Program-made: the position numbers and the translations under genes
In this document: piece by piece, positions 30,701 through 63,434 of the stretch
Position numbering within the stretch: the first letter of the stretch is position 1
Layout of the letters: the number at the start of each line of letters is the position of its first letter
The notes under the pieces: model-generated
Database searches by the model: none
The model's input: only the letters and a program-made list of their open reading frames with translations
What the model was told of the DNA's origin: nothing
From: Zootoca vivipara
Lineage: Eukaryota
DNA length: 64,000 nucleotides
Assembly: GCF_963506605.1 (NCBI RefSeq)
Contig: NC_083277.1
Span: 17,794,001-17,858,000 of the forward strand
Direction of reading: 5' to 3'

Positions 30701-30708
30701 GCATCCAT
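18067..30708 (-). CDS. TRIM27/TRIM39-like class IV TRIM ('TRIM-B'), complete. Exons 30708-30283, 27395-27300, 26414-26184, 24531-24509, 22839-22721, 21677-21621, 18584-18067
   Basis: [22 protein letters not shown]-box [15 protein letters not shown], coiled-coil exons of 96/231/23/119 bp, 57-bp linker exon, terminal PRY-SPRY exon ([31 protein letters not shown]). All GT-AG and in phase; extra micro-exons cannot be excluded. Confidence 0.88.
18770..18897 (-). mobile_element. tRNA-Lys-derived SINE with CR1-like 3' tail (second copy ~24277-24430)
   Basis: Minus strand GGATAGCTCAGTTGGTAGAGCATGAGACTCTTGATCTCAG... followed by CATTGCAGGGGGTTGGACTAGATGACCCT tail. Confidence 0.75.
20066..20265 (+). 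mobile_element. RTE-type LINE 3' fragment (longer copy ~37520-38040)
   Basis: Encodes [19 protein letters not shown]-terminal motif; ends in a (GAA)n tail; the two copies are near-identical. Confidence 0.7.
21696..22320 (-). mobile_element. L2/CR1-like LINE 3' fragments with (TTA)n tails (related: 43513-44100; another family 20750-20880, 31170-31345, 44330-44640, 47270-47630)
   Basis: (AAT)n microsatellite followed by a shared TTTATACCCCGCCC... sequence in several copies. Confidence 0.6.
25240..25814. mobile_element. Mariner-like MITE with nested CpG-rich hAT MITE (25472-25789)
   Basis: Outer inverted ends CCCTGTTTCCCTGAAAATAAGAC / GTCTTATTTTGGGGGAAACACAG with TA flanks; inner CATAG...CTATG ends with TSD GTGTCTTA/ATGTCTTA. 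Confidence 0.65.
26737..26886 (+). mobile_element. BovB (RTE) 3' fragment
   Basis: GGAGTGCCTGGCGTGCTCTGGTCCATGG..CACGAAGAGTC..CACAACTAAAC, same as the 3' end of the 50455-51018 element. Confidence 0.75.
27535..27886 (+). mobile_element. Sauria SINE (other copies ~62080-62446 and 62891-63238)
   Basis: GGGTGGCGCTGTGG..GGTTCGAATCCC head, AAAGTGCAAGTAGATAAATAGGTACC core, (CCTTTA)n tail. Third copy has TSD TGCCTATAAAAC/TGCCTGTAAAAC. Confidence 0.85.
29310..30246 (+). mobile_element. L1 3' fragment interrupted by a hAT MITE (~29578-30034)
   Basis: [18 protein letters not shown] matches the C-terminus of the L1 ORF2 at ~41670; the MITE is the same family as 52043-58290. Confidence 0.7.
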
Positions 30709-36574: not shown

Positions 36575-39500
36575 CTAAATCCTCAGCTCGGTTCCAGGCC
36601 AGACCCAGAGCCAAGGGAAGATTCTCTCCTGACTGAACATCGCTGGTGAGAAAACGTAGATTAACACTGATGTATCGGCATCAAAAAATGCCACTCGTTC
36701 CTCTTCATAGTCCAGAAATACCCAGACTCTCCTGGGGCAGTTGCGCGATGGCAAGATAGTCGGTGGATAGGTAAGAGCTTCAAGGAGATCCCCACTTTGT
36801 TGTAGAGCCCATATCTGCTCCTCGGGGCTAGGGGTGATCTGTCCTTTCCTTTCAACAGATTCTTTTGCAAAGCCCACGGCCCAGTGCTTCCCACTGGCCA
36901 CTTCGACTTCCCAATAATGCCTCCCCGACGTGAGTCCCTCGCAGCCCAGCACACAGGGGTAAGTATCAAATCTCTCGGGGTTGTCATCTACATCCTGCCA
37001 TGCATCTCCGAGTCTCACACTCTTCTGATCCGCTGAGAGGACGAGGAAGGGGTTTGCAGTGTCTCGATCCAGAGTCACGTTCACTTGGGAGGGAGGGAGG
37101 AAAAAGAGTGTGTGTGTGTTACAGACAGAACTGGTTCCCTAATATAATGCATCTGTGTATGTTATTTTCTCTAATACAGTGGTACCTCTGGTTGCGGACA
37201 CGATCTGTTCCTGTGCCATTCGCACCCCGAAAAGTCCGTAACCAGAGCGCGCTTCTGCACATGTGTGAAGCGCAATAGAGCGCTTCTGTGCATGCAGCGA
37301 AACCCGGAAGTAAACACTTCCGGGTTTGCCGTGTTCTTAACCCGAAAAAAATGCAACATGAAGCGTTCACTAGAAGAGGTATGACTGTACTGTATTTTTA
37401 TGCACGCTTTCCCCCGATATACATATTTTTGTGACACATTATTTGTTGCTATGGAAAACTGCACTGGAACATTAAAAGAAGAATGAGTTTCAAAAGGTAG
37501 CTGTTTTGATTTGTCCGAAAAAAATTACACTTCACTTGGGAAGACAGGCGAACTAATACCAGTGTATTGGAAGAAGCAAAGATCACCAGTTTCAAAGCAA
37601 TGATTCTTCAACTTCATTGGCATGGTCATGTTGTCTTCCAAAGCAACTACTCTATTCCGAACTTAAAAATGGAAAGCATAATGCTGGTGGTCAACAAAAG
37701 AGATTTAAAGACTATCTCAAGCAAAATCTTTAAAAATGTAGTATAAACACCGACAGCTGGGAAACACTGGCCTGAGAGCGCTCCAATTGGAGAACAGCCT
37801 TTACCAAAGGCGTCATGGGCTTTGAAGAAACTCGATCTCAGGACGCAAGGGAGAAACGTGCGAAGAGGAAGACATGCTTGGCAAATCCACACCGTGATCA
37901 ACTCCTGTCCGGAAGCCAATATCCCCACTGAGGAAGGACATGTGGATCCAGAATTGGCCCCCACAGTCCCTTACGGACTCATTGTTAAAACCGTGTTCAT
38001 GGAAGACAATCTTACTCAGCTACGAGTGATCGCCAAAGAAGAATTATTATTCCAGAGTCAGAGAGTGAAGAAGAGGAAGAAGATAAAGATTTAAGTAAAG
38101 AACCCGACCAAGACTAGATAAAATCTTATCTTCCTGATATTAGGAAGTAAAATGGCATCATTGAAGATACATACTTGGAATGTACATGGATTGAATAACA
38201 AAGTGAAAAGAAATAAAATTGATCATATTTTGAAGAAGAAAAATTTGGATATAATCTGTCTTCAGGAAACACATGTGGCGAAAAAACACAATTATATTCT
38301 TAGAAATAAAAGGTTGGGTAAAGAATTTATAAATTCAGTAGAAAATAAAAAGAGAGGAGTGGTTTTGTATATAAAAGACAAATTGGATCCAAATCTGATG
38401 TTTAAAGATGAAGAAGGAAGAGTGATAGCGGTCCAAATATCGACCCAAGGAGAAAAAATGCTGGTGGTGGGAATCTATGCACCGAATGAGAACAAAGCGG
38501 AATTTTACAAGAATTTGGAAGAAAGGTTAGCAGAGTATATGGACCAAAAGATAGTGCTTATGGGCGATTTCAATGGAGTGACAGTACCAGAATTGGATAG
38601 GACAAAGAAAAGGAAGAATGAAGGCAAGTTACCAAAATCCTTCTTTGAATTGGTAGAAAACCTGGGCCTAGTGGATATTTGGAGGTTAAAGCATCCTACG
38701 CTTAAACAGTTTACATTCTTTTCAGAACCAAATCAAAGTTCTGGAAGAATTGATCATATATGGATCTCCAAAGAACTAGTACCCAGGGTGAGTAAAATAG
38801 AGATAATACCACGAACATTATCAGATCACAATTCAATATTTATGGAAATGAAAAGCAAAGATCAGAATTCCTTTAGGTGGAGAATGAATGAGGAGCTTTT
38901 CGAAGATAAAGAGGTGGTAGTAAAAGCTAAGAATATCCTGAAAGATTATTTTCATTGGAATCTACATAAAGACACTGGACTTGATATGGTATGGGACGCA
39001 AGTAAAGCAGTAATGAGAGGCTTTCTAATACAGCAAAATAGTTTCCTGAAACGAAAGAAAGAAAAGAAGAAGGAGGAAATCCTGAAGTGTCTCATGGAAA
39101 ATGAGAAAAACCTGATAGATAAACCAGAGAATCAACAAATCAAACATAACATAAAGATGTTACAGACACAATTCTCTATGTTGATCAGTCAGGAGATAGA
39201 ATGGAAAATAAAGCAGATGAGACAAAAAAATTTTGAATCAGCGAACAAAACAGGAAAATTATTGGCATGGCAATTAAGGAAACGTCAAAATCAAAATATG
39301 ATAGTGAAGATAAATATGGAAGGAAAAGTGACTGAGGAGCCAAAGGAAATAAAGAAAGCCTTTCAAAAGTTTTACAAAGAGTTGTATTGTAAAAAGAAAG
39401 AAGAGGAGAAGAAGATCAGTGATTATTTAAGCAAACATGGACTGAAACAAATCCCAGAAGAGGAAAGAAAGAAACTTAATAATAGGATAACAAGGCAAGA

Positions 39501-42500
39501 AGTACATCAGGCAATAACGAGAATGAAAGTAGGAAAAGCCCCAGGACCAGATGGATTATCAGCAAAATACTATAAAGTTTTAAACGGACAGCTGATACCG
39601 ATTTTAGAAGAAGTGATGAATGATATTCTTGCAGGAGGAAAGATCCCAAATACATGGAAGGAAGCGTATATTACATTGATTCCAAAACCAGGAGCGGATG
39701 GCTTAGAAGTCAGAAATTATAGACCAATTTCTTTATTGAACAACGATTATAAGCTTTTTGCAGACATTATGTCCAAGAGATTGAAAGAAGTTTTGAATGA
39801 AATGATACATAAGGATCAAGCTGGTTTTCTTCCTGGTAGACAGTTAAAGGACAACGTCAGACATATAATAGATGTAATAGAATATCTGGAAACCAAGATA
39901 GATAAGCCAGCAGTATTAATGTTTGTGGATGCAGAGAAAGCATTTGACAATATATCTTGGCAGTTTATGAAGAAAAATCTGGAATCGATGGTTGGCAAAG
40001 ATTCTTTTTTGAATGGGATTGAGGCAATATAGTCAGAACAAAAAGCAAGATTGATAATTAATAACACATTAACGGAATATTTTGACATCACAAAAGGAAC
40101 TAGACAGGGGTGTCCCTTATCCCCTTTATTATTCATCATGGTCCTGGAAGTACTATTGAATAGATTAAGAGATCTTTCAACTATTAGAGGAATTAAAGTA
40201 GGTGCAAAGCAATTTAAAGTGAAAGCCTTCGCGGATGATTTGGTCTTAACTCTAGAAAATCCTAATGAAAGTGTTGCAGCGGCTATAGAAGAAATTGAGA
40301 AATTTGGACAATTAGCAGGATTTAAATTAAATAGACAGAAAACAAAGGTGATGGCAATGAATATGACGAAAGAGGAAAAGCAAGAGCTACATCTAAAATA
40401 TGGTTTTGATGTGGCAAAAAAAGTAAAATACCTTGGAATATGGATGACAGCAAAGAACATTAACTTATATAGTGACAATTATGAACCAGTATGGAGAGAA
40501 ATAAAGAAAGACCTGGAAAGGTGGACTAATATGAACATGTCATTCTTAGGAAGAATAGCAGCAATTAAGATGAATATCCTACCTAAAATGTTATTCTTAT
40601 TTCAAACTATACCTGTGGTGAAGGGTACAAGACAATTTCAAGAATGGCAAAAGATTTTGTCAAGATTTCTCTGGCAGGGGAAAAAACCTAGAATAAAACA
40701 TAAAATCTTGGTAGACAGAAAAGAAAGAGGTGGTTTCTCCCTGCCAGATTTAAGACTTTATTATGAAGCGTCTTGTATGTGTTGGATTAAAGAGTGGATA
40801 ACGTTGAAGAATACTGACCTGCTAGATTTGGAAGGTTTTAACAATAGATTTGGGTGGCATGCATATTTATGTTATGACAAAAAGAAGTCTCATACTGGGT
40901 TTACCAATCATGTGATAAGAAGATCTCTGTACGAGGTGTGGGAAAGAAATAAAATGCTGTTAGAGACCAAAAAACCATGGTGGGTTTCACCAGCAGAGGT
41001 ATTAACAGTGAAGAAAGTAAATATGGAGGGGAGGTGGGCCACTTATGAGGAAATTTTGATAAGAACTGATAAAGGATGGAGACTTAAACCCTATGAAGAA
41101 ATTAAAGGAGTTTTAACAGGATGGATACAATACCATCAAATAAATGATGTTCTTAGGGAAGACAGGAAAATAGGTTTTGAGGACAAAAGGTCCAAATTCC
41201 AAATAGAAGTGCTAGAAGGCAAAACAAAGCTTCTGTCAAAAATGTACAATTTGTTATTAGAATGGTATACGAAGGATGAGTTGACAAAAGAAGTGATGAT
41301 CAAGTGGGCAAAAGATTTTGGGCACAATATTGATTATGACGCGTGGTTGAAATTATGGACTCAAACGTTGAGATTTACAGCATGTACTGCTTTGAAAGAA
41401 AATGTGTATAAGATGATGTATAGATGGTATTTAACACCAGTTAAATTAGCCAAAATGTATAGAATGAGTGACAAAACTTGCTGGAAATGTAAAGAGAGAG
41501 ATGGTGAATTTTATCATATGTGGTGGACATGCGATAAGGTAAAAAGATTTTGGGAGATGTTATATAATGAGCTGAAAAAGATGTTTAGATATACTTTCCC
41601 AAAAAAACCTGAAGCATTTTTACTAGGAATAATGGGAGGAGAGATTAGAAAAGAAGATCAAGTATTGTTTATGTATGCGACAACCGCGGCTAGGACTTTG
41701 TTAGCCCAAAAATGGAAATTACAAGAAATTCCAACGATTGAGGAGTGGCAGATTAAAATGATGGACTATGCTGAACTCGCAAGGATGACTTGCAAGATCC
41801 GCGACCAGGGGGAGACAAGGTTTCAAAAAGACTGGAGTAAATATGTGGATTATATGGAGAAAAATTGTAGATCTTTAAAAACACTTGCAGGATTGAAATA
41901 AATCCTACGAATTGACCAAACAGTTAAAAAGGAACTGCAAAAATGTAGTAAACAAGAAACCCGCATGAAGGGAGGGGGGGAAGTCGTAGCTCGGCAGAGC
42001 AAAATGTTAGATGAAAATTTATAATGTTGTGTATAAAAGAATGTTTTTTTTTATTATTTTAATTGGATAAATTGGAAATTGAATAAAAATTTATTTAAAA
42101 AAAAAAAAGAAGAATTATTATTCCAGAAAGTCCTAATTAAGTAGATTTGCCTTTCCCTGGGAACTGAATTAAAAATCTCCCCTGTCCCTACGGCTGCAAC
42201 ATACTCAGAAATTGTGTAACCGTTACTGAGCCCCAAAACTACTGACCTCTTGTGCCTCTTTTCTTCACTTCGGCATAAGGCAACTCAAATAATCTTGTCC
42301 TGCCTTTCCGGACTCCTAGTTCCTCTTTTGACAAATATATGCTCTCCAGTTCAACTGACACAGCAGCTAGAGTAAGAGAGGAGAAAAATGGAGATTAGAT
42401 TCCACAAAGCTGGTGCGCTTGGGCCAGTGGTTTTCAGAATTATACATTCAAGGAACTCTTCCCCCTTCAAATTATATAATGAGGAGCTCTGGTGTGACTG

Positions 42501-46600: not shown

Positions 46601-49186
46601 TCTCCTCCATTATCACTTCCTTCTGCAGCTGTTCTAGCCTGGCCAGCAGGAATTCTTCTTGATCCTCTAGAAACTGATGGAGCTGCTCAAATTCAGACAC
46701 AATCTTCTTCCCTTCGGAGTCTAACCTTTCCTGCAAAGAGCAGGTCAAAAGGAAGGCAGGGAAGGTCAACAGAAAATGTTACGGTATAGAGTTGTGGCAT
46801 TATCACCTGAACCACCGACTTTCCCCATCACTCAGCATTCACAGAGGAAAAGCACTACTTGCTGATATTTTTCTTGTTATGCACCTATTAAAGACACAGA
46901 AGCCGGGGGGGGGGATGGGCAACTTGGACTGCTTTCATCCACCTGGCAGCCCTCCACATGTTTTAAACTCCAATCAGGTGTTAAGTCTGAGAACTGCTGA
47001 CTTACCAGACGTTTCAAGCTTCTTCTCGCTTCAGCTAATTTCAGGGCCTGGAGTTCCTCTGTCTTTTGCTTCCAGATCTTCAGTTGCATCTGAAAGTGTT
47101 CCTTTTCAACAGAGAAATTATAAGCAGGCTTTTGGGGCATGGAGGTGGGAGTGGGGAACCTAGTAGCCTATAGTAACATAGGAAGGGGGAAGTGCTTTTT
47201 GTTTTTATTATGTATTTTGTGTTTTTATGTTGTGAACCGCCCTGAGATCTATGGATAAAGGGTGCTATACAAATTTAGTAGTAGTAGTAGTAGTAGTAAT
47301 TTATTATTTATACCCTGCCCATAATAATAATAATATATTATTTATACCCCGCCCCAGCCACTCTGGGCGGCTTCCAACAAAACATTAAAATACAGAAATC
47401 CAACAAACATTAAAAGCGTCCCTAAACAGGGCTGCCTTCAGATGTCCTCTAAAAGTCTGGTAGTTGTTGTTCTCTTTGACATCTGGTGGGAGGGTGGGTG
47501 CCACTACGAAGAAGGCCCTCTGCCTGGTTCCCTGTAACTTGGCTTCTCACAGCGAGGGAACCGCCAGAAGGCCCTTGGCACTGGACCTCATGAACAATGG
47601 GGTTGGAGACGCTCCTTCAGGTATACAACAACAACAACAACAACAACAACGGGGAGGTAACTTATGAGTCTGAGCAACCTGTGTGGGGCTTAGTAAGTCA
47701 CATAATTCTCACTTGAAATAATCAGCAAAAGGGATAACGTGCTTCCTGCCAGTTCTACATATGGCAAGAGTCAACACACTTGAATAACTTGACCACATTC
47801 ATGGCATGTATTTAAATTGCTATTATCACTTTAAACAGTCAAGGCTTCCCTGAAAGAATTATGGGAACTGTAGTTTGTTAAGGGCACTGAGAGCTCCCCT
47901 CGCAGAACTACACTTCCCAGAGCAGCTGAAGAATCAGCCCCCCTTCACAGAGTGCTCTGGGGATTGTAGCTCTGTGAGGGAAATGGGGGGGGGGGTCTCC
48001 TAACACTTCTCAGCACCCTCAACAAACTACGTCTCCTAGAATTCTTCGGGGGAAGGTGTGACTGCTTAAAGCGGCGCCATAGCACTTTAAATGTGTGGTA
48101 TGAATGTGACCATAGTCATGTTCATTAATTTCAAGGGGTCTACGCTGAGTAAATCACATGTAAGAAGCTACCTTATACCAAGCCCATCTAGCTGTGTATT
48201 GTTCACACGAGCGTTCACACGTATTGTTCACACGATCGTTCCTCAACCTTAGGCCCTTCATATGTTGTTGGACTATAACTCCCATCATCCCTAGCTAGCA
48301 GGACCAGTGGTCAGGGATGATGGGAGTTTTAGTCCAACAACAAGGTAGAGAAAGGCTGGTTTACACCGACCAACCCATAGCAGCTCCCCAAAGGCAGGAA
48401 ACATTCCCTGTCTCCCCTGGAGATACTAGGGATTGAACCATGGATGTTCTGCAAGCGGTCCAGATACTCCACCCTGCCTGAGCTACGCCCCTTTCCCCAA
48501 AACCAGGGGTCAGCAACCTTTTTCAGCTGTGGGCCACTCCACCATCCCTCAGACCATGTGGTGGGCTGGACTATTTTTTTTTGGGGTGGTGGTGGTGAAC
48601 GAATTCCTATGACCCACAAATAACCCAGAGATGCATTTTAAATAAAAGCACACATTCTACTCATGTAAAAGCAAGCTGATTCCTGGAGCGTCCGCAGGCC
48701 GGATTGAGAAGGCGATTGGGCTGCATCCGGCCCACGGGCCTTAGCTTGCCTACCCCTGCCCTAAACTACCTTGTAATCCTGAGCAGCTTCTTCTATCGGA
48801 ACGACAGTGTGATTTTGATGCTCGTTGGAAATAGTGCACACCAAGCAGATGGGCATCTTGTCGTCTTTGCAGAAGACCTTGAGGTGTTCCAAGTGCTTCT
48901 CACAGACTCTCCCCTCTTCCAGTGCTTTGGCAGCTTCCAGATTCAAGCATTTGACTATCTCCACGATTCTCGCCAGATGCTGGTTCTCTCTGAAGCTCTT
49001 TTGGTGGCTGCTTTCCCCACACCGGGGGCAGGACACGCCAGTCTCCTGCCCCCACCAGCACTGAGTGATGCAGGCCTGGCAGAAGTTGTGCCCACAATGT
49101 ACAGACACCGGCTCTTTGAAATACTCCAGGCAGATGGAGCAGGAAGCTTCCTTGCTCAGGTTTCCTAAGAGAGCGTTTGCGTCCAT
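36575..49186 (-). CDS. TRIM27/TRIM39-like class IV TRIM ('TRIM-C'), complete. Exons 49186-48770, 47101-47006, 46730-46512, 44844-44822, 43476-43361, 42366-42247, 37083-36575
   Basis: RING CSIC..CGHNFCQAC..CPRC, B-box CEKHLEHLKVFCKDD, exons of 96/219/23/116/120 bp, PRY-SPRY exon NVTLDRDTA..DNPERFDTYPCVLG..YWEVEV..LDYEEERVAFFD; all GT-AG and in phase. Confidence 0.88.
38057..42108 (+). mobile_element. 5'-truncated L1 LINE: end of ORF1, full ORF2, 3'UTR, poly(A)
   Basis: TSD GAAGAATTATTATTCCAGA (38038-38056, 42109-42127); AATAAA at 42082 and A-tail; ORF1 tail SESEEEEEDKDLSKEPDQD*. Confidence 0.93.
38152..41901 (+). pseudogene. L1 ORF2 (APE endonuclease + RT + C-terminal Cys motif) with a single in-frame TAG at 40030-40032
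   Basis: WNVHGL, LQETH, GDFN, SDHN (EN); KAPGPDG, YRPISLLN, DAEKAFD, GTRQGCPLSP, FADD (RT); CWKC..HMWWTC. The two ORF-track pieces are in the same frame. Confidence 0.92.
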
Positions 49187-50082: not shown

Positions 50083-50420
50083 CAGGGCCGGATTTAGGTT
50101 TGATGAGGCCCTAAGTTGTCCCGTTGTCCTTTGTCAACAACAAATTGTCGCTATTTTTGTGTTGAATATACTGTATGCTATATGGTAATTTATGGACCTA
50201 ATACCGGTAGGTATCGAAAACCATTTGCACATAACAAATAGGAGGCTACACAACACAAAACACTGTTGCTGTCTGTAGGATTTATTTTATTTGTTTTTTA
50301 TCTTATATTTTGGAAATGTACATCCATTTCCCCCCCTTTAATTATTATTTTTTGGGGGGCCCCCAAGAGAGTGGGACCCTAAGGAGCTATAGCTTGTTCA
50401 GCTTATATGTAAATCCGGCA
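50083..50420 (-). mobile_element. hAT MITE, same family as 52043-58290
   Basis: CAGGGCCGGATTTAGG terminus and reverse-complement internal similarity. Confidence 0.7.
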
Positions 50421-51018: not shown

Positions 51019-51513
51019 ATTGCAGTCCGAAACAGCTTCAGGATGCCAGGTTGGTGGAGCGCAGAAGCGCAGATTTGTTATTATCTCCTTTTTATCTAAT
51101 TCGTTTGAAACTGAAAATCAATAAAACACAAATGGGGGGAAAAAGCCACCCACTTTTCAGAAGACGCATAGAGAGGACTGGGCTGGAAACCAGCTATTTC
51201 CCATAACGCGGCCTTCCCCATCCTTGTGCCCTGCAGACGTTTCGGACTACAATACCCATCACGCGTGCACGCTGGCAGGGGCTGATGGGTACTGTAGTCC
51301 GAAACGTCTGCAGGGCACAAGGTTAGTGGAGCGCAGAAGCGCAGATGCTCCGGCGCCTCTTGGGCGCGCAGAGCGTTACGCTCCCCAACTGGAGGAGTCC
51401 TCAGTCCTAATCCTCTCCCTGGCTCGGCCTCTCAGCCTGAGCTACGGAGCGCCATTGAGCCCGGAGGACCAGGCACTGCTACTGTTTCTGCTATTGCCGC
51501 CGCCGCCGCCGCC

Positions 51514-54500
51514 ATGGAGAACCCGGTGGAGAGCCTGCACAAAGAAGCCACTTGCTCCATCTGCCTGGAGTACTTCCGCGACCCGGTCTCCATCCCTTGC
51601 GGGCACAGCTTCTGCAGGTCGTGCATCGCGCAGTGCTGGAAGGAGCGCAGCACCGACTTCTCGTGCCCTCAGTGCCGGGTGGTGTCCCTGCAGAGGAATT
51701 TCAGGCCCAACCGCGAGCTGGGCAACGTGGTGGAGATCGCCAAGAGGCTGGGCTCCGGCGCCGAGCAGGAGGAGCCGGGAGGCGGCGGCGGGAGGCAGGT
51801 GTGCGAGAAGCACCGCGAGGCGCTGAAGCTCTTCTGCAGCGAGGAGGAAGACCTCATCTGCTGCATCTGCCGGGAGTCCCGAGCGCACAGGAGCCACGCT
51901 GTGTTCCCCGTGGAGGAAGCGGCCCAGGATTATAAGGTGAATAGTGGGGGGCACACGCGCGCACACTTGACTGGTGCTATTTGGCGCCCTATTGGGGCAC
52001 CCCCTCCTCAGAATGGTGGAACATAGGAAAGTGCCTCCCACCCAGTGCTGGATTTACTTATAAGCTAAACAAGCTATAGCTTAGGCCCCCAAAAATTTGA
52101 AGGAAAAACAAACAAACCTGGATGTACATTTCCAAAATATAAGATATAAAATAAAATAAAATAAAACCTACATACAGCAAATGAAACAAGAAGTCAACAA
52201 GGAATGCATTTAAGGAATATTTGAGAAACAATAACATAAAAGAAACCCCTTTGGAAGAGCTAGACTGAACCTTGTACAGTATATTATAAATCTATATTAC
52301 AAATGTTTAAATATATGAATAAGTAAGGGGAAGGTAATATGTATACAAAACTGTGTGAAAACATCCAAATAATAGACAAAATACAGCAAGTTTAATTGGA
52401 AGTCATTTTAAAATTAAGGCAAGAGAATATAAGTTGGAAAGTGATAGAATAATTGGTTTTATGTTCATTGTTTTGTTATTTGTTACTGGAACGTATAATT
52501 TATGTTTGTAAGTATATGTATGTAATTTGTTTGTATGTAATTTGTTTGCAATATAATTTTTAAATAATAAAGATCTATACATAAAAAACACTACATACAG
52601 CAACAGTGTTTTGTGTTGTTGTGTAGGCTCCTATGTGTCGGAGAACCAGCCGACTCTTAGGTGCGAGGAAATCATGAGACGAGAGTCAGGAGTTTCAGAT
52701 AGAGAGCATGAGCAGAGTGCTGAGCGAAGTGCGCTGAGCAGAGTGCTGACTGCCTCTCAGCCTCAGCTCCTTTATTATGGATGGTTTCCTTGTAAAAAAC
52801 ATTAACCTTTAACCTATACATGACTCATGCAAACAAGGAAGATGTGTAAACAGACAGGCTGGCGCCAGTGGTCACTTGATTGATTACCCCCAATAAACCT
52901 GTGCCTTACACAGAGAACTCCATTTGTACATTCCCACAGAGTGTTTCCTGTGTACATTCCCACATCACCTCTTTCTTTTTATTTTTAAGCAACAGGGTAA
53001 ATTAACACGTGGGAAGCCAGATAGGGAGTCGCTGATACCTCGCAATGAAGGCTCCACGTGAAATTCCAGTGGAGGGGCGTGCAGCCTGAAACCAGGTCAT
53101 GCATTGACCAAAGAGGGAGGGTAAACATTGAATGCAGCAACATAACATAACCAAGCCACAGGCTAATCCCATAACCGTCAAAAGTGTTTTCCTGATCCAG
53201 GCACCGTTAGGCAACCAAGACAGCAGCCATTCCCATGGATCAAAACCCACGGCAGGTTGCAAGGGCTGTGCAGCCACCAAGTTCTCCATTTCTTGTATAG
53301 TATGAGTAATGTTAGGACCATTATCTTGCACATACATGCAACAATGACTATGTATTAAGGCACATACGCCTCTTTTCGAGGCTAAAATCACATCCTGTAA
53401 TTCTGTATTGATCAATTTCATGCCTTTAACTGTGTCATTGAACAAAGCCTCTGTCCAGTTAGCTAAGTGATGCAAATCTCTATAATTCATTTTGCTACTC
53501 CTAATAATGGCAAAATACTACGAGCTATCTGAGTATCAGTATATTGTGTTATAGGGGCATTGACTTCGTGTTTATTGCGCAAGCGGGTGCGAGGAAGAGC
53601 ATCTAACTTATACACCAGTGGTATCACTACCCCTAGAGTGCAAGTCCCTGAAAAAGCAGAGGGAATCTCTTTGTATGCATTCTTACCACACAAAAGCCAC
53701 AGATTTGATTGTAACACGCATGTGGATCTCCAACTCTTCTTCATCCAATCAAACCATGAATAAAAAGCACGGCATGTAGCCTGTTGGTAATATGTCATGT
53801 ATCTGGTAACATTATTAATTGTTACCTTGGGCCTACCGCTTTGGGTAGTGACGTTAAGAAAACAAGAGCTACCATTAACATATAAGTCCAATTACAATAA
53901 GGATAATGACCTAAAAATCTGCTACTATCGTGATTAAAACGAAAACATCGTGGAGCTACTTCTAATAATGATAATATAACAGGGGGTGAACTAATACGAT
54001 TATCTCTCATATTATTACTAATTCTAAAAGAATCATTAATAGGAATACCATGCAGTAATATCCCCTGAATGACTTGACTGTGAGGGAATATGTAAGCAAA
54101 TCCAACAATCAGAATAGTTAAGCAATTTCGCAAACTGAGAAATATCCTGTACATAGGTATTATTATTCCATATGGAATGATAAGAGTCATGTCTTTGATA
54201 CTTCTGTAAAATGGCAGCACGCCTAGAGCGATTATGGCTTGCAGATCGAATAAATGGAAGGTGATCTTGACGGAGTGCAGCCATATTTAGAGCACGATGC
54301 CGCCAGGTGCAATGGTGTTTCAGACCGGGTGACAGGTGCTGTCCTCCAGAAAGAGTGTAGAAAGGTCTGCCTCCTCCCTCAGCGGCATCTGCGACTGAAT
54401 GGGCTGAAGAAGAAGCTGTAGATGATTGCCAGGGTCGTACACAGCGTGCTGGCACCCACAGAGGGTCCCCATCGATGGCATATCCATGTCCCCAGGCAAT

Positions 54501-57500
54501 CAGCAGTACAAGGCCACGCCATGCTGGATCCGGATGTTTCCTGAAAGACACAAGGGAGCGAGGCAGCTCCTCCTCTTTTCTAAAATGTAATTCTGCAGGA
54601 GTATGCTGCTTATTATGCGGGTATAAAAGATAAAAAAGCACTTGATGCACAATATAAGATATTTCCGCAATAGGAGCGTTCTTTCCACTAAGTTGTGGAA
54701 AAAGCAGAGATTTAAAAGTTGAATGCTCAGCAATTGCTTGTCCTGTAGAATTAAAAGGAATACCATGAGTTAATTTCACATTCCACAATGTACAGAAATC
54801 AGAAAATCGCTTAGAAATATACGCAGGGCCATTATCCGTTTTGATGCTGCTAGGCTTTCCCATGACCGAAAAACAGCGCAGAGTGTGCTGTATTACGTGC
54901 CTGGCTGTCTCCCCTTTTAAGGGCGTCGCCCAGATGAAGCCCAAAGACGTGTCCACCGTGAGGTGCAGTCTTGAAAAAAGAGGCTAACAACGGGGTGAGA
55001 GTGACATCCATTTGCCAAATTGAGAGAGGGGCAATCCCTCTGGGATTGACAGCATCAAAAGGAAACATGGTAGGGGCTTTAGAACAAGAAAAACATTGCG
55101 AGACAATGTCTCGTGCCTGAGAAATTGATGTTTGAAAAGACTTGGCTAGAACCCTGGCAGATTGATGAAAGGTGGCATGGCTCAGCAGAGGGTCAAAAAA
55201 CAAAGAAAAGACCTGCTCTTGCTTCAAAGCAGCATCTGCTACAGCATCTTGTAGCAGACGCTGCAAAGAGAGAAACAATTGCAACAAAATCATCATCCAG
55301 AGCAGGATAATGTATGCCACTGACAAGAATGTCAAAAATCTGGAGACATACTGAATATCAACAATCAGGTTAAACTTCACATTCTGAAACAGATCAAAAG
55401 CCAAAATCACCACAGCCAATTCAGAACGCTGAGCGGATTCCTGCTCCGTTGTAAATCTTGTCTTCCAGGCCCCCTCCTCCCTCCACACAACCACCCCCCT
55501 TGTCTTGGTCCCATCTGTGAAGAGGGTGAGAGCAAAGGGGATAGGGGAGGGGGAGCACAGGGAACGGAGGTAATAGGAGACAGAGGAAAGAAAGATCAAT
55601 GCCACAGCACATTGTCTTCCCTTGATAACAACGTCCATAACAGCTGCTGGAGAAGTATGTACGTTCTGCAGTGATGCATGGGGCAAGTGTAGCCATTCAA
55701 CAAGACAAACGCGAGACTGAGAAAATTCTGCAGGCTGGTAGAGAACAGCTGTGGGCAGCAATTTTGTGGCAAAAACAGCCAATGACAATAGTCCTGTGGA
55801 ATCCAGGCGATCCACCATAGATTTTTGCAAATGGTGATTAATCGTTGCCAGGGCTGATTCCATATCCAGTATGATGTCTGCCGGTTGCTTATGTCCTTTC
55901 AGGGCATTGTACAAAGGTGATAGTACACACGTTGGCAAGTCTATGTATGATTTTGCCCAATTCGAATGTCCTAACAGCAGTTGTAGATCCACCAGCCAGA
56001 GTACCGCTGGAAAATGCAGCTGCAGTATCAGGGGTGCTGCTGCTTGTTGCGTATCCTTGTGTTCCAGGTATGTGATAGGCAGGGTGCGTTGAATTTTTTC
56101 CAGGGCGATTTTAAGCCCTGCAGAGGTGAGATCCTCTGTCAGCTGGTGCACCCATGTTTCAGGAATGTCTTTAGCGGCAAGCAATTTTGCTGTGTGGGAT
56201 TCAGAGCCGATTGATTGACAGGCTTTTAACATGTCGGCTATTGCCACATCAGGTGTAGCCACCAGCGGGCGCAAAGATTGTTTACAGTCTTCATTGGCAT
56301 TATCAAAGGCTAATTGTCTGATGATTACTCCTTGCGCTGCTGTATCTTGAACCTGGCGTCTAAGGGTATTGTACAGTCTATTTATGAAAGCGCCATAAGG
56401 TTCAGTGGGTCCTTGCTGCACGCTCCCCCATCGCTCCCCTTTTTTTAACTTCACAGGAGGAACAGACATCAAAGCCTCCTGGGCAGCTGAAATTGTGGCG
56501 TCCCAGTACTGAGGATCCAGAGCCAATTGCTGCGCAGTTGTTAAAAAATTCCCAGCTCCTGTGAGACCATCCAGGACGTCTCCAGGTGTTAACATAACAG
56601 GGGGAGGGAGGGGGGGTGCCCCTGCTGCCAAGGCTGCAACGGCATTGGCATGTGCTGCCTGTGCAGCATTATTCAAATTTGTTTGGATATCATGGACCCG
56701 GCGTTGACAAGCCCAGGTCCAACTTTGCATAAAAATTATCATTTGATTTGGCTTGAGCACTGTTCTAGCCAGTAATTTAATATCCTCTGGCAATAATTGC
56801 TGTTGAAAAATAGTGCCAAAGAGACCAAGAGTATACGGGGAATGCAATCCATTGTCTCTTACTGACTGATACAATTCTTTGATGTATCGGAGTTGAAATT
56901 GCTCGTGCCGTGGTGCCCCGCCCCCAGGTCCCGCAGGCACAATCACAGTAGACTCAAAAGCCAGCAAAGGAGCTGCTGCTTTAAGAGATTCCTGGAGCTT
57001 TGTAGTATTCCCCCCCTCCTGCTTCACAGTGGGCATGGTACTTTGAAATGCAGGCAAAACCTGAGAGACATAAGCTGGAGGGGGTGGGGTGGCAGACAAA
57101 GAAAGTTGCTGTTTTCCTGGCGGAGTTAAATTAGGTGGGTCCGGACCAGGAGGGATGGGGGCAGGCAATGCCGGAGAAACAGAAGGCTTCAGTGGGGGAG
57201 GCATGCATGCGGGTGGTGCAGAGGGGAGGCTTGAAGCAGCTGCCAGAAAGATATTCTTTGGCATGACTAGTGCCAAGCATGCTCTTATTTTCCCCCACGT
57301 AATTAAGACACGTACTCCAATGCTGGGATGAGCATGAAAATGTTCACCAAGTTTGTCCCAAAAATCTAATTCCCAAGTTCCATCCTCCGGAAACCATGGA
57401 CAGTGCTCATAAGCAGTATGAATAAAAGTAATAAGATCGTCTTCTGAGGCATGCTGATTGTTAGAAGTCAGCAGGTATTTTAAGTCTTTAAGAAAACGTT

Positions 57501-60500
57501 TCTGTGGCACAGAAAGCGAAGTGCCCATTGTAAATGCAGGAAGAGAAAAATAAGCAATAGCTGGGAGCCAACTCACCGGGGATCCTAAGATGAGGTAGAC
57601 GTCTGAACCCTTGCCGGGCGGGTGAGTAGCTGATGCAGGACCACGACGTGCGTCCTTTCAACAATGGCGTAGAACTTTTTAGCCTCACACGGGGCACCAC
57701 TTGTCGGAGAACCAGCCGACTCTTAGGTGCGAGGAAATCATGAGACGAGAGTCAGGAGTTTCAGATAGAGAGCATGAGCAGAGTGCTGAGCGAAGTGCGC
57801 TGACTGCCTCTCAGCCTCAGCTCCTTTATTATGGATGGTTTCCTTGTAAAAAACATTAACCTTTAACCTATACATGACTCATGCAAACAAGGAAGATGTG
57901 TAAACAGACAGGCTGGCGCCAGTGGTCACTTGATTGATTACCCCCAATAAACCTGTGCCTTACACAGAGAACTCCATTTGTACATTCCCACAGAGTGTTT
58001 CCTGTGTACATTCCCACACCTATGATGTAAGTAATAGGCCCCGCCTGCTTGCTAAAATATCACTGGTTTTCTCTTTTCTAGATATAGGGTGCCTACATTC
58101 TGCATGGACTGGTGACATGGTAACATGTGCAAATGGCTTTAGATACCTATTCAGTCCATAAGTTACCATATAGCATATATTCAACACAAAAAACAGCGAC
58201 AATTTGTTGTTGACAAAGGACAGCTGGACATATAAAGGGCCCAATTACCTTCAGTAGCGTAGGGCCTCATCAAATCTAAATCCGGCCCTGCTCCCACCAA
58301 GTCAGAAGCATTGGTCCATTTTGCTTGGTAATGACAGTGGTTCTCCAGGATTTCAGGATGGAGTTTCAGCCTAGGGCTGCCACATTTCAAAAAAGTAAAA
58401 ACCAGGACACCCTGAGCTGTTGACTCCCAAATTGTTAATTTTTTTTAAAAAAATGCCGAAAAACCACAATTTTTCTATTATTATTATTATTATTATTTGA
58501 ATTTATATACCGCCCTATACCTGGGGGTCTCAGGGTGGTTCACACAATAAAATCAAGATATAAAATCAAATACATAATAAAAATAAAAACAACAACCCAA
58601 TAGCTCCCCCCTCCAAATTGCATTCTCTAAGATCCAGGACAGCGCACTGCCTTTTGGAAATTCCCCAGACGTTGATTCTGCAGACATATGGCAGCCCTAG
58701 TCTCAACCAACTTTACCATGGATGGTTACCCGTAATGAATGCTTTACTTGAGATTCCTGGAATAGATGGCCCTTGGGGTCCATTCCAATTCTAGATTTGT
58801 ATGATTCTACCTGGAGATGTCGGGGATTGAACTTGGGTCCTTCTGCTTGCAAGGCAGATGCTCTACCACCAAGCCACGGACAGGCCCATTCTTGTTGCGG
58901 TATAACAGGCATCCCCAAACTTCAGCCCTCCAGATGTCTTGGACTACAACTCCCATCTTCCCTGACCACTGTCCTGTTAGCTAGGTATCATGGGAGTTGT
59001 AGGCCAAAACATCTGGAGGGCCGCAGGTTGGGGATGCCTGCGGTACAACCTTGCATAGACACTGAACCTCAGAGGAAGGAAGCCGTTATTATCATAATAG
59101 TGAAAACGCTGATAATAATAATGCAACATTATGGTGTTGATGATGATGACATTGAGACCAACCTACCAATATTATTAGTGCTAGTAGCAGCAACTGTAGT
59201 ATTGTTCCTTCCCATCTGAAGAATCTTGTCGGTTAGTCCCCTCCCCCCTTGCCTTTGAAACTATGTGTGATGTTGAAAGTATGTTTGAAGTTGGAGAAAT
59301 AAAATGCTGGGTTAATGCCATAATATTTTATTTCCATTGCTCCATAATCTGGGTGGGTTTCTTTTGTTCCCGTGTTGATTATGGAATATCAGTAATTTTT
59401 TTTTGTATTTCACTATCGGTTAAATTGGATGTAACCTGTTGCTTGTGTGTGAAGCAACATGGGGCATTAGTTACTAACGACAACACTATTTCAAAATAAG
59501 TTTCTATTTGTTTAGAAAGAAATCCAGAGCCGTCTGCAGAGCTTAAAGGAAGAGAAAGAGAAACTCCTGGGGTTAAAACTGGCTGGAGAAAATAGACACC
59601 AGGAATATCTGGTTAGTATAGAATCCTGTGGTATAGCCTAGCAAGGAATGTGGGCATTAGTTTATCTTTATTTAATGTGCTTTTACATCCTGGAACTTGA
59701 AGATATAATCCAGGGCTTTAATCAGCAGACCAAGCAGGAAACAGTGATGGCCGCCAACTTGGAAGGCTTTAAAAGTGGGCTAACAAAATTCACGTAGGAT
59801 AAGACTATCAGTGGTTGGCATCACTAGGGAACAGGGAGGATATATAGACCTTGTAGTGTTCCAAATGCAGCTCTTTTCCCATGGCAACATTTCACTACAC
59901 GTATAAGGAGGGCCATGCTGGATCAGACAAAAGACCTATCCTTTCTACCAGGCAGGTTCTCTGATGTTCTACGGTAGTTGCTTCTGAATTTTAGCTTTTC
60001 ATTTTGTTGCTTTGATTATATTTGCATTTTGATCTGTGCAATCCCCTGCCCCAAATGCAGATGACACCAAATTGAGAGGGGTAGTTAATGCCATGGAAGA
60101 CAGAATCAGGGTTCAAGATGACCTTAACAGATTGGAGAACTATTGGGCCCAAACTAACAAAATGAATTTGAATAGGGACAAATTTAAGATTCTACACTTA
60201 CGGTAAGCAGAAAGAACCAGCTGCACAAATATAAGATAGGGGACACCTGGCTTACTAGCAGTACATGTGAAACGGATGTAGGGGTCTTAATAGACCATTA
60301 GCTGAACATGAGTCAACAGTGTGATGCAGCAGCAAAAAAAGAAAAGAAAAAAGAAAGGCTAATGCTATTCTAGGCTGGATCAACAGAAGTATTGTGTCCA
60401 GATCAAGGGAAGTAATCTCTGTTCTGCCTTAGTCAGACCACACCTGGATTACAGTGTCCAGTTCTGGGTACCACAATTTAAGAGGGATGTTGACAAGCTG

Positions 60501-63434
60501 GGACATGTGCAGAGGAGGGCAACCAGAATGATCAAGGGTCTAGAAACAAGGCCTTCTGAGGAACAGTTGAGGGAGTTGGGTATGTTTAGCCTGGAAAAGA
60601 GGAGACTGAGAGGAGATATGATAGCCATCTTCAAATATCTACCGGTAAGGCGCTCTCATGTTGTGCCTTCAAATTGCGCTGCTGACTTTTAAAAATCAAA
60701 ACTTAGTATATTTTGGTTTTCCAAAAGAGTTCCAGTATTTCAGATTAATTTCTGCTTATTTGAGGGGTGTTTGCTGATCTTCCCAATGCCCTGACCCATC
60801 TTTCTCCCACTTTCCTCCCTATGTTACAGAAGCAAACAGAAGCCGAGAGGCAGAAATTGATGTCCGAATTTGAGCTGGTGCATCACTTTCTGGAGGAGCA
60901 AGAAAAACTCCTGCTGCATCAGCTGAATGAGCTGGAGAAGGAGATTATGAAGCATCAGAAAGAACATGGGGGAAAGTTTTCTGATGAGATTGTCTCTCTC
61001 AGTGCCCTGATAGATGAGATAGAAGAAAAATGCACACAGCCAGACAGCGAATTCTTGCAGGTGAGATGAGGTGGTTGTTGGGTGGGGTAGAACTGAAAAA
61101 AGGACACAACAAACTGAAGAATAAGCCTAAAGCTGTCCTTAACATAACCAAATCCTTATACTTATTGCCCAGTAAGTAATACACAGGGTCCAGCTGAGTG
61201 TATGGTACTTCATGCAGACCAGAAAAGAGCTATACAAATAGCAAACACTATTGTTAGAGGTATCTTTCTACTGCAGTTGGAATGGCTTGCTCAGTAATGC
61301 CTGTCTCCCTGTCTCAGCAACTGAATGCATAATTTCATTCCAGTTAACTCATTTCCCCACTGCCCTGCTTTCTTCTCCCAACGATTAGAAGGTGCGCAGT
61401 TTCTAAACTACGCTGTCTCTGTTTCTCAGATATAAGTGGCTATAATGAGAATCTCCTGTTATGCTCATGTTGATGCAGAGTTCCTGTCTTTCTCTTCCCT
61501 GTCCACCTACGCTCCTCTCTCTCTAGGATATCAGAAGCACCTTGGGCAGGTATGTGGCACTGACATCCACTGAAGGCATGCATTTGCATATATATATATA
61601 TATATGCCCTCAAGATTGTGCTGCTTCATTCCGGTTTGCAGATAGTTTGCTTTTTCAAAATATTAAAGCTGTGGTATACTGTGACAGACCATCTTGCCCA
61701 GAGATGGGGAACCAGGTGTTGCTGGACTCCAGCTCCCATCAGGCCCAGCCTGTGTACCTAACTGTCGGGGATGATGGGAGTTGTAGTCCAGCAACATCTG
61801 CAGGACAACATGTTCCACCATCCCTGATCTAACCAGGACTGTCAACTCTGAATGTGAAGGGTTGCCCAGGATCTCAGGCAGAGTTCTTTCCCGCGATTGC
61901 CACCTGCGACCCTTTAAGTGGAGATGCCATGGGCTGGGCCGGGTCTTTTGTACATGTGGATCTCTGGCCCTTCCCACTTTTGTTAGCAGCTCCTCCCAGT
62001 CTCCAAGCTGAGATGGGCTTTCTATTTCTTCCATATTCATACACACTTTGGATACTCTTGGACTTTGGTTTGTATCACTGTGATGCGGGTGGCGCTGTGG
62101 TCTGTACCGACCGGAAGGTTGGTGGTTTGAATCCCTGCGGCGGGGTGAGGTCCCGTTGCTCGGTCCCTGCTCCTGCTAACCTAGCAGTTTGAAAGCACGT
62201 CAAAGTGCAAGTAGATAAATAGGTACCGCTGCAGCGGGAAGGTAAATTGCGTTTCCGTGCGCTCTGGTTTCCGTCACTGTGTCCCGCTGCGCCAGAAGCA
62301 GTTTAGTCATGCTGGCCACATGACCCGGAAAACTCTCTGTGGACAAACGCTGGCACCCTCGGCCTGAAAGCAAGATGAATGCCGCAACCTCATGGTCGCC
62401 TTTGACTGGACTTAACCGTCCAGGAGTCCTTTACCTTTTTTTACCTTCCAGGATGCCTTTTTAAACAATGGACAGAGGCACTGTGCTCTCTCTTAACAGC
62501 TTCACAAAAGACTGTTGTGGGGAGTCCAGGATATGCTTTTCCTGGCATAGCAATAATAACAAGCAAAATGTGGGATTTAGTCTCTTATGTGGCCTTTTGC
62601 AAAATCACATTGAACAGAATAGTCATAAGACCAATGAATGCACTGAAGAAAAACATTTCCCCAGGTACAAAATCCTGCAATATCACTTATCAGAAAATAG
62701 GATGCTCTTACAGAGAAACTGCAGTCATCTCACTGCTTCTCCCAGGGAGCTAAATGTACTCATACTGTACAGCTCCACCTCTGAGAGACACATACTACTA
62801 TTTCACCTGTTTTATCACAGGGCCAGCTTCCAGGGCTGAATCTTGGATCAGCACTGACTCAGATTTAAGTACAACTTTTGCCTATAAAACGGGATGCAGG
62901 TGGCGCTGTGGATTAAACCACAGAGCTTGGGCTTGCCAATCATAAGGTCGTCGGTTCGAATCCCCGCAACGGGATGAGCTCCCATTGTTCGGTCCAGCTC
63001 CTGCCAACCTAGCAGTTCGAAAGCACGTCAAAAGTGCAAGTAGATAAACAGGTACCGCTCCGGCAGGAAGGTAAACGGCATTTCTGTGTGCTGCTCTGGT
63101 TCGCCAGAAGCGGCTTTGTCATGCTGGCCACATGACCTGGAAGCTGTACGCCGGCTCCCTCGGCTAATAAAGCAAGATGAGTGCCGCAACCCCAGAGTCG
63201 TCCGCAACTGGACCTAACGGTCAGGGGTCCCTTTACCTTGCCTGTAAAACCAAGTGTCACGCAGCCTTAATTGGGCATCTGCAGAATGGGGGGGAAACTG
63301 ACACATTTCTTTTCCAAGGTTTGACAAGGAGCCCTTTCAGTCACCTGAAGAGATGCCATCCAAGGTGGAAAAAAGACTCGGTGAATTATCGGAGAAAAAC
63401 AGCGTGCTCACAAATATCCTGAACAACTTCAAAG
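51514..63434 (+). CDS. TRIM27/TRIM39-like class IV TRIM ('TRIM-D'), partial (3' exons beyond window). Exons 51514-51936, 59516-59611, 60830-61060, 61527-61549, 63319-63434
   Basis: Kozak GCCGCCATGG in a CpG island; [21 protein letters not shown]; B-box [15 protein letters not shown]; exons of 96/231/23/116 bp, GT-AG and in phase. Confidence 0.88.
52181..52590 (+). mobile_element. Short L1-like 3' fragment
   Basis: 13-bp TSD CTACATACAGCAA (52168-52180, 52591-52603); [10 protein letters not shown] terminal peptide; AATAAA plus A-rich tail. Confidence 0.7.
52636..52964 (-). repeat. ERV 3' LTR (329 bp)
   Basis: Preceded on the minus strand by the PPT; contains AATAAA, an AP-1 site TGACTCA and a duplicated TGTGGGAATGTACA. 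Confidence 0.95.
53002..54220 (-). pseudogene. env: ERV env (gamma-type), frameshifted
   Basis: SU CWIC; [15 protein letters not shown]; degenerate furin site RNKH; [13 protein letters not shown] (CX6CC); hydrophobic anchor; at least two frame breaks. Confidence 0.85.
54036..54956 (-). pseudogene. pol: ERV integrase core/C-terminus (frameshifted from upstream ORF) running into env SU N-terminus
   Basis: [24 protein letters not shown]; WVPARCVRP; then [10 protein letters not shown]. Confidence 0.85.
54850..57528 (-). CDS. gag-pol: ERV Gag(MA-CA)-Pol(RT thumb/connection, RNase H, IN N-terminus) in-frame deletion fusion, 892 aa
   Basis: MG myristoylation start; beta-type [11 protein letters not shown]; PSAP and PPAY late motifs; [17 protein letters not shown]; then [41 protein letters not shown]. 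No CCHC knuckles, protease motif or YxDD. Confidence 0.85.
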   Translation of the reverse strand: MGTSLSVPQKRFLKDLKYLLTSNNQHASEDDLITFIHTAYEHCPWFPEDGTWELDFWDKLGEHFHAHPSIGVRVLITWGKIRACLALVMPKNIFLAAASSLPSAPPACMPPPLKPSVSPALPAPIPPGPDPPNLTPPGKQQLSLSATPPPPAYVSQVLPAFQSTMPTVKQEGGNTTKLQESLKAAAPLLAFESTVIVPAGPGGGAPRHEQFQLRYIKELYQSVRDNGLHSPYTLGLFGTIFQQQLLPEDIKLLARTVLKPNQMIIFMQSWTWACQRRVHDIQTNLNNAAQAAHANAVAALAAGAPPLPPPVMLTPGDVLDGLTGAGNFLTTAQQLALDPQYWDATISAAQEALMSVPPVKLKKGERWGSVQQGPTEPYGAFINRLYNTLRRQVQDTAAQGVIIRQLAFDNANEDCKQSLRPLVATPDVAIADMLKACQSIGSESHTAKLLAAKDIPETWVHQLTEDLTSAGLKIALEKIQRTLPITYLEHKDTQQAAAPLILQLHFPAVLWLVDLQLLLGHSNWAKSYIDLPTCVLSPLYNALKGHKQPADIILDMESALATINHHLQKSMVDRLDSTGLLSLAVFATKLLPTAVLYQPAEFSQSRVCLVEWLHLPHASLQNVHTSPAAVMDVVIKGRQCAVALIFLSSVSYYLRSLCSPSPIPFALTLFTDGTKTRGVVVWREEGAWKTRFTTEQESAQRSELAVVILAFDLFQNVKFNLIVDIQYVSRFLTFLSVAYIILLWMMILLQLFLSLQRLLQDAVADAALKQEQVFSLFFDPLLSHATFHQSARVLAKSFQTSISQARDIVSQCFSCSKAPTMFPFDAVNPRGIAPLSIWQMDVTLTPLLASFFKTAPHGGHVFGLHLGDALKRGDSQARNTAHSALFFGHGKA
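57682..57699 (-). other. ERV primer-binding site complementary to elongator tRNA-Met
   Basis: TGGTGCCCCGTGTGAGGC is the reverse complement of GCCTCACACGGGGCACCA, the 3' end of vertebrate tRNA-Met(e) as recalled. Confidence 0.85.
57702..58018 (-). repeat. ERV 5' LTR (317 bp)
   Basis: Direct repeat of 52636-52964, differing only by a 12-bp indel. Confidence 0.95.
60050..60640 (+). mobile_element. CR1 LINE RT fragment
   Basis: GCAGATGACACCAAATT (ADDTK) and [32 protein letters not shown] motifs. Another CR1 3' piece at ~15800-16100. Confidence 0.8.

Follow-up and report, generated by a model that had tools for sequence, protein, structure and literature searches.

A deleted provirus in a TRIM gene intron

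The window analysed here, a stretch of 64,000 nucleotides of the lizard Zootoca vivipara (NCBI RefSeq assembly GCF_963506605.1, contig NC_083277.1, positions 17,794,001 to 17,858,000), carries an endogenous retrovirus (ERV) that extends from 58018 to 52636 on the minus strand. Exons of a TRIM gene flank it on the plus strand, a RING/B-box exon at 51514..51936 and a coiled-coil exon at 60836-61060, and the provirus is therefore intronic and antisense to its host gene, the PRY-SPRY exon of which falls just beyond the window end (the middle exons, missed before 64 kb by a crude exon scan, were recovered by tblastn). The provirus was inserted into a copy of a high-copy, non-autonomous DNA transposon (52043..58290) with terminal inverted repeats and an 8-bp target duplication of its own, from which we take the transposon to be of hAT type. 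A genome search for this host repeat returned 2,979 candidates, of which 40 were scored.

The element has the structure of an integrated orthoretroviral provirus: long terminal repeats (LTRs) with TG...CA ends, a short target duplication, a primer-binding site (PBS) and a polypurine tract (PPT). The 5′ LTR (57702..58018, minus strand) measures 317 nt and the 3′ LTR (52636..52964, minus strand) 329 nt; in pairwise alignment they show 317 identities, no mismatch and a single 12-nt gap, caused by one additional unit of a short tandem repeat 3′ of the poly(A) signal. A preliminary description of this stretch had reported LTRs without substitutions that differ by one 12-bp indel, as well as a perfect 6-bp target duplication, and both observations held. 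The same hexamer stands at 52630..52635 and 58019..58024, and it is present once in 11/11 inspected paralogues of the host repeat (7 exact, 4 with one base changed), so the duplication is genuine. The description had also called the insertion apparently very young. At assumed rates of 1e-9 to 4e-9 per site per year, however, the 317-nt pair alone bounds the age at 1.2-4.7 million years, and the case for youth comes instead from the LTR pairs of the whole family (see below).

Over 19 nt, the PBS (57681..57699, minus strand) pairs with the 3′ end of a host tRNA-Met(CAT), and the PPT lies at 52965..52986 (minus strand). The gene for the primer tRNA has an acceptor stem starting with G and a normal T-loop, which we take as marks of the elongator tRNA-Met; a literature search found no paper on this primer in reptile ERVs. 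A first tRNA pattern match for the primer site proved to be a chance match, with no tRNA there, and was dropped.

For the interior, we used as coordinate reference a long relative from the same genome (L036, 7,225 nt). Pfam recognised in the window copy, in order, matrix (MA), the two capsid domains CA-N and CA-C, the reverse transcriptase (RT) thumb, a partial RNase H and the integrase (IN) zinc finger, all in a single stop-free frame, with the IN core in the next frame. It found no zinc knuckle, protease or RVT_1 there, all of which are present in L036. Relative to L036, 1,483 nt have been lost, from the end of CA to just beyond the RT catalytic motif, and with them the gag end including nucleocapsid (NC), the protease and the RT fingers and palm; Pfam and this comparison thus agree with the earlier statement that NC, protease and the RT catalytic region are gone. 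At the junction (56173..56174, minus strand), capsid runs in frame into the RT thumb. With gag, pro and pol each in its own frame, the removal of 3n+1 bases brings gag into register with pol. The fused gag-pol frame (54850..57528, minus strand) spans 935 codons between stops, or 892 aa when counted from the ATG of gag. It contains MA, which has a myristoylation-type motif at its N terminus, the PSAP and PPxY late motifs, CA, the RT thumb/connection, partial RNase H, the IN zinc finger and the start of the IN core. Additional in-frame deletions in the pol remnant (55240..55875, minus strand; at about 55869, 55595 and 55247) all recur in siblings. At 55289-55307, two compensating single-base indels 19 nt apart, found in all 25 deleted copies described below, leave the fused frame intact.

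Downstream, the remaining core and C-terminal part of integrase (54036..54983, minus strand) is out of frame with the fused open reading frame (ORF), the break lying near 54.98 kb. The env remnant (53002..54284, minus strand; start coordinate by eye) is of gamma type with its CX6CC motif kept, and its Pfam matches are weak (Avian_gp85, E 0.011). Compared with L036, it has frame breaks at ~54.07, 53.88 and 53.49 kb, no basic furin motif near 53.57 kb and a 39-nt loss across the immunosuppressive domain (ISD) near 53.40 kb. The frameshifts in IN and env, the dead furin site and the missing ISD that had been listed before are thereby confirmed, but the description overlooked the single stop-free frame formed by gag and the pol remnant.

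The same deletion at 25 loci

Searches of the lizard's own genome with the LTR (40 of 71 candidates scored), the junction region (32/32) and env (31/31) delimited 29 proviruses with two LTRs, the window copy included. Twenty-five of them carry the same junction, base for base. The ISD is gone from all 25, through the 39-nt loss in 24 and a longer overlapping loss in one, and the 25 copies have 25 different 6-bp target duplications (24 read by script, that of L053 by eye). The same deletion at 25 distinct sites means that the damage precedes these insertions and that the lineage could not copy itself. An ancestor lost the 1,483 nt (NC, protease, RT core) and the ISD of env, and at least 25 insertions descend from it. 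The preliminary description had argued for damage older than the insertion, in a non-autonomous lineage mobilised in trans, and had proposed a search for siblings sharing its deletions at other loci; such siblings exist, each at its own duplication, and its argument stands.

A very different account would be an old single copy with gene-converted LTRs, or an assembly collapse or segmental duplication. One 317-nt pair is compatible with a few million years, and a 12-nt indel does separate the two LTRs. Yet the junction recurs at 25 loci, each with its own target duplication and its own LTR variant. Moreover, the junction is spanned by a contig from an independent DNA run, at ~20x the depth of the unique flank (depth being a rough guide), and in three samples, each from a different study, interior depth is many times that of the unique flank; the family is therefore not an assembly artefact. 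We give this account practically no chance, and in general form it is refuted: neither a single copy with private deletions nor a collapsed assembly, the two findings that the preliminary description saw as fatal to its view, is what the genome holds.

Statistics were computed on 23 core copies, with L057 and L058 set aside as earlier branches and with L036, L057, L058, L059, L060 and L061 as outgroups. The core LTR pairs differ by 8 mismatches in 7,532 nt (one of them a boundary artefact), and 19 of the 23 pairs show none, which at the same assumed rates (1-4e-9) bounds the age of these 19 at ~0.06-0.24 million years. Core interiors are 1.4-5.1% apart (median 3.1%). The cis-acting signals (LTRs, PBS, leader and PPT) are kept across the deleted copies, the PBS being altered in core copies L053, L055 and L056, and an MG(S/T)SLS start is kept in 29/29 copies. 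We are highly confident that this is a real, young, multi-copy, non-autonomous ERV lineage.

Individual copies vary around this pattern. L044, L046 and L056 keep the basic furin motif that is lost in the 20 other core copies, likely through early branching or recombination. The break near 54.98 kb is present in 22/23 core copies; L056 is without it and has a frame of 1,027 aa. The fetched loci also include at least two solo LTRs (L048, L050; 31 of the 71 LTR candidates were unscored) and three partial relatives, namely L049 (LTR and PBS, after which it breaks off), L063 (a 3′ half) and L062 (an older partial copy).

Long relatives and exchange between forms

Only two family members retain the region missing from the window copy: L036, with zinc knuckles, protease, RT and env domains by Pfam, and L060 (6,517 nt, without NC). 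Otherwise that region was found in three distant elements, 68-70% alike. The env frame is open in both L036 and L060. Weighing against trans-mobilisation, no copy with all four frames open exists in this haploid assembly, L036 and L060 each being broken, so that the helper is one we infer. The preliminary description had looked to an intact helper in the genome; a full-length relative is indeed there, but not an intact one. A competent helper may reside at a polymorphic locus, be exogenous, have been lost or be supplied piecemeal. A second class II family (L078 at G000:C7:53.58 Mb and L079 at G000:C3:79.14 Mb) was considered for this role and is an unlikely candidate, being 67% alike in RT with no LTR match. 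Its two members, 99.9% alike over 8.4 kb, form a separate young class II ERV family with LTR pairs identical across the fetched parts and with long frames. A third class II-type pol (L080, G000:C13:19.96 Mb) has a long, oppositely oriented retroelement frame beside or inside it.

Recombination among copies, which like the intronic position had been overlooked earlier, is prominent in this family. Among the deleted copies, 57 of 66 pairs of indel markers show all four gametes (19 of 21 for markers ≥4 nt), and the incompatibility of 304 informative sites within 100 nt is 0.43, as against a mean of 0.53 in 1,000 permutations. The LTR of L036 falls in the 21-row clade of the window copy and that of L060 with other deleted copies (bootstrap support for LTRs is rough), whereas on their interiors L036 and L060 are sisters. 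Divergence of the deleted from the long copies amounts to ~8-10% beside the junction and 2-4% across much of 5′ gag and env, and is not monotonic. Exchange between deleted and long forms is indicated, and the deleted interiors are recombinant mosaics. Co-packaging of deleted RNAs with sibling and helper RNAs, followed by template switching, explains such mosaics; among the single-base markers, repeated mutation at one site could also contribute.

The copies might also owe their spread to infection rather than to jumps within germ cells, the deleted RNA having travelled in the particles of a helper, exogenous or replicating somatically, and so having entered the germline repeatedly. No two core copies are closer than 1.4% despite identical LTR pairs, and by our arithmetic each carries ~16 private variants, compared with ~2-3 expected after insertion. 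The membrane-targeting start and late motifs are kept, both long relatives have an open env frame, and the assembly contains no open helper, all of which this route would account for. On the other hand, private transitions are enriched at CpG (40 on 240 sites versus 89 on 1,902 other C/G sites), an enrichment that fits residence of the donors in methylated germline DNA; unsampled donor loci and recombination would also yield private variants, and env decays freely in the deleted lineage. We consider the infection route rather unlikely, and it is in any case compatible with the explanation that we favour below.

The fused frame and its maintenance

The fused frame is open over 802-1,027 aa in 17 of the 23 core copies. 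Among shared indels absent from the outgroups, 8 of 9 in the fused ORF are in frame compared with 0 of 5 in env (by Fisher's test p 0.003, rising to p 0.035 with the IN break and the ISD loss added to the counts). All seven shared indels of at least 9 nt in the fused ORF keep the frame, for which chance would give 5e-4. Shared frameshifts number one in 2,537 nt of fused frame and five in 1,274 nt of env (p 0.018, or 0.046 once the IN break is counted). L060 and L061, through deletions of their own, likewise join CA in frame to the downstream gene.

Several observations weigh against maintenance of the frame by selection. The core set and the end of the fused ORF were chosen post hoc, and overlapping deletions were merged by judgement. 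The separate deletion in L059 is out of frame, in-frame indels also occur beyond the IN break, and the fused frame is broken in 6 of 23 core copies and in the older L057 and L058, with one frameshift common to L031 and L040. Five of the six breaking indels, though, sit in single-base runs, where they could be either terminal events or mistakes of the assembly. Substitutions give no sign of constraint on shared variants, for which dN/dS within the deleted lineage is 1.26 in gag, 0.76 in the pol remnant and 2.32 in env; gag singletons alone fall below 1 (dN/dS 0.55, p 0.016). Pairwise πN/πS was dropped as evidence of selection since it does not discriminate: it is <1 everywhere, even in the broken env, owing to a predominance of variants that the long relatives also carry.

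An alternative reading is that the element is a passenger RNA of the ETn or VL30 kind, mobilised in trans, in which nothing but the cis signals matters and the fused frame arose by chance with the founding deletion and is slowly decaying. The neutrality of post-deletion shared variants by dN/dS speaks for it, as do the broken frames just listed, the shared frameshift and the nearly universal IN break. It sits poorly with the seven long shared indels that all keep the frame, with the excess of shared frameshifts in env, with the two further independent in-frame fusions and with the placement of most breaking indels in single-base runs. We regard the passenger reading as possible, at somewhat worse than even chances. 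Together, the indels and substitutions fit selection acting on translation through the frame more than on its residues.

Gag-type proteins can also serve the host, as in the restriction factors enJS56A1 and Fv1, and the NC-less Gag fusion could have been kept for poisoning helper particles. An intact MA-CA with a membrane-targeting start lies in an open frame, and family RNA is present. Against such a role, the copies are numerous, young and dispersed, with no one locus conserved, shared variants in gag are neutral, and the frame-keeping indels have been passed on through rounds of replication, a sign that it is the element that is under selection. A host restriction factor therefore strikes us as very improbable.

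We consider it quite probable that the window copy is a recent germline insertion of a trans-mobilised class II lineage, with beta-like pol and gamma-type env. Proteins of a full-length relative would package the lineage's RNA, reverse-transcribe it and integrate it; the case for this is strong, as it is for co-packaging with sibling and helper RNAs as the source of mosaic copies. With moderate confidence, we further propose that, once the deletion had fused capsid in frame to the pol remnant, reading through the frame would help the RNA's own mobilisation in cis, either by stabilising the RNA or by yielding a membrane-targeted, NC-less Gag fusion that co-assembles with helper Gag, as reported for the mouse intracisternal A-particle (IAP) form I-delta-1. 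Selection would then act on the open frame and not on most residues. Whether the kept fusion works like that of I-delta-1 is, by analogy, about an even bet.

Classification, expression and genomic surroundings

The RT of the long relative has its best named matches in bird ERVK-type pol, at ~47-58% identity, with none above 63% among 120 listed of 461. Its best solved-structure match (7sr6, E 4e-90), which we take to be HERV-K RT, is far ahead of lentiviral RTs, and CA matches 6hwi and HERV-K Gag. L036 has gag, pro and pol in three frames, with no dUTPase domain reported. By RT and CA similarity, the 6-bp duplication and the three frames, the family can be assigned to class II (beta-like) ERVs, a placement that does not separate alpha from beta. 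Gamma-type Env is characterised, according to PMC9967133, by an immunosuppressive domain followed by CX6CC; the long relative has both, and the window copy keeps CX6CC with the ISD deleted. Related env types in squamates are described in PMC13568524.

In one RNA run (~6% of reads sampled), 767 reads fell on the stretch, and over the provirus the first mates were mostly plus strand, which implies that the transcripts are sense, provided that the library follows the common stranded protocol. Most of these reads are 90-99% alike, with 70/767 at ≥99%, and hence come mostly from other copies. In the indexed sequencing runs, no RNA run was listed as carrying the sequence. For the empty allele, no joint or loose end at 52635 appeared among the rows listed from public contigs (there were 188 further loose-end rows). 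Window-private alleles were absent from three DNA runs at 6/6 listed of 11 private sites; alleles of 10-12 assembly copies are also absent from these contigs, which therefore drop variants, and this absence was discarded as uninformative.

The window as a whole is a cluster of TRIM genes, in which TRIM41, several RING/B-box and PRY-SPRY exons and an exon for C2H2 zinc fingers lie at 5808-7136 (minus), 12528-13667 (plus), 18067-18645 (minus), 30061-30771 (minus), 36575-37138 (minus), 48698-49162 (minus) and from 51514 onward (plus). The best relative of its TRIM41 exon is from a lacertid lizard (95%), the next being at 70-74%, and the arrangement seems to us reminiscent of the TRIM cluster beside the chicken MHC. 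At 38122-41901 (plus) lies a LINE, probably young, whose endonuclease and RT domains fall in two long stop-free stretches, one after the other, of 636 and 622 codons; the strong skew seen at 38-42 kb is due to it. The DNA-transposon family that hosts the provirus has a second copy, oppositely oriented, beyond the TRIM exon on its other side, and short hairpin MITE-like repeats are also present (50083-50420, 51019-51346, 58906-59040).

Discussion

The closest parallel that we know of is mouse IAP I-delta-1, which, according to PMC6466679 and PMC7411935, carries a 1.9-kb gag-pol deletion, encodes a fusion protein acting in cis, draws on Gag and Pol in trans and accounts for most new insertions. 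The lizard lineage resembles it in being class II, in having one internal gag-pol deletion (1.48 kb against 1.9 kb) with an in-frame fusion, in needing Gag and Pol in trans and in recent insertions that outnumber full-length copies. It differs in its lizard host and independent origin, in a decaying gamma-type env that is still retained and in its tRNA-Met primer; nor does it belong to the IAP family proper, a rodent lineage mostly without env. The cis effect was established experimentally in IAP, whereas in the lizard family it is deduced from indel patterns alone. The Gag proteins also differ, that of IAP being targeted to the endoplasmic reticulum while the lizard Gag keeps a myristoylation-type start.

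Trans-complemented ERV morphs are known in mice, cattle, koala and possibly humans, as set out in PMC10924933. The lizard family shares with cattle ERVK[2-1-LTR] C/D, MusD/ETn and KoRV/RecKoRV a defective form that is the commoner one (85% there, 25/29 here), pervasive recombination between forms and trans-complementation. In those systems, however, a central segment has been swapped for foreign sequence and the D-types are without intact ORFs, in contrast to the clean deletion and kept fused frame seen here (PMC10924933). Resemblance to HERV-K(HML-2) and avian class II ERVs lies in pol, capsid and the three-frame layout, the lizard family having a gamma-type env, no reported dUTPase domain and at most 63% identity among the 120 matches listed of 461. 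The python endogenous retrovirus PyERV, which is unclassified, is another squamate ERV, described in PMC3230843 as related to B/D types with C-type affinities.

Our literature search found no description of such a trans-complemented lineage in a lizard, most subscription papers and the repeat databases lying outside its scope. The search for invading ERVs in 2,004 vertebrate genomes, lacertids among them, that is described in PMC10435555 required intact genes, and would therefore exclude by design a lineage such as this, despite its 25 of 29 proviruses here. Of the features used there, the family has identical LTRs (19/23 core pairs) and does not have all genes intact; a third, polymorphism of insertions among individuals, was approached through the public contigs, with the outcome at 52635 given above. 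In 12 of the 14 supplementary files of PMC10435555, lacertids appear in the genome list only, so a full-length form of the family may already have been described.

Both the cis-translation idea and the prediction that competent forms are displaced by defective ones could be tested in nature on this family, which also supplies young insertion markers, one of them inside a TRIM intron of an immune-type gene cluster. We tentatively suggest, at less than even confidence, that it is an independent, still spreading lizard counterpart of I-delta-1, a parasite of its own retrovirus, in which three separate deletions each removed NC and joined capsid in frame to the next gene, and in which selection on the successful lineage keeps ribosomes moving through ~900 codons while their amino acids drift. 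If true, this would amount to population-genetic evidence from nature that cis translation picks which defective RNAs win the machinery of the helper, obtained outside mice and for a virus that has env and a membrane-targeted Gag, and the lizard parasite lineage may be pushing its helper to extinction.

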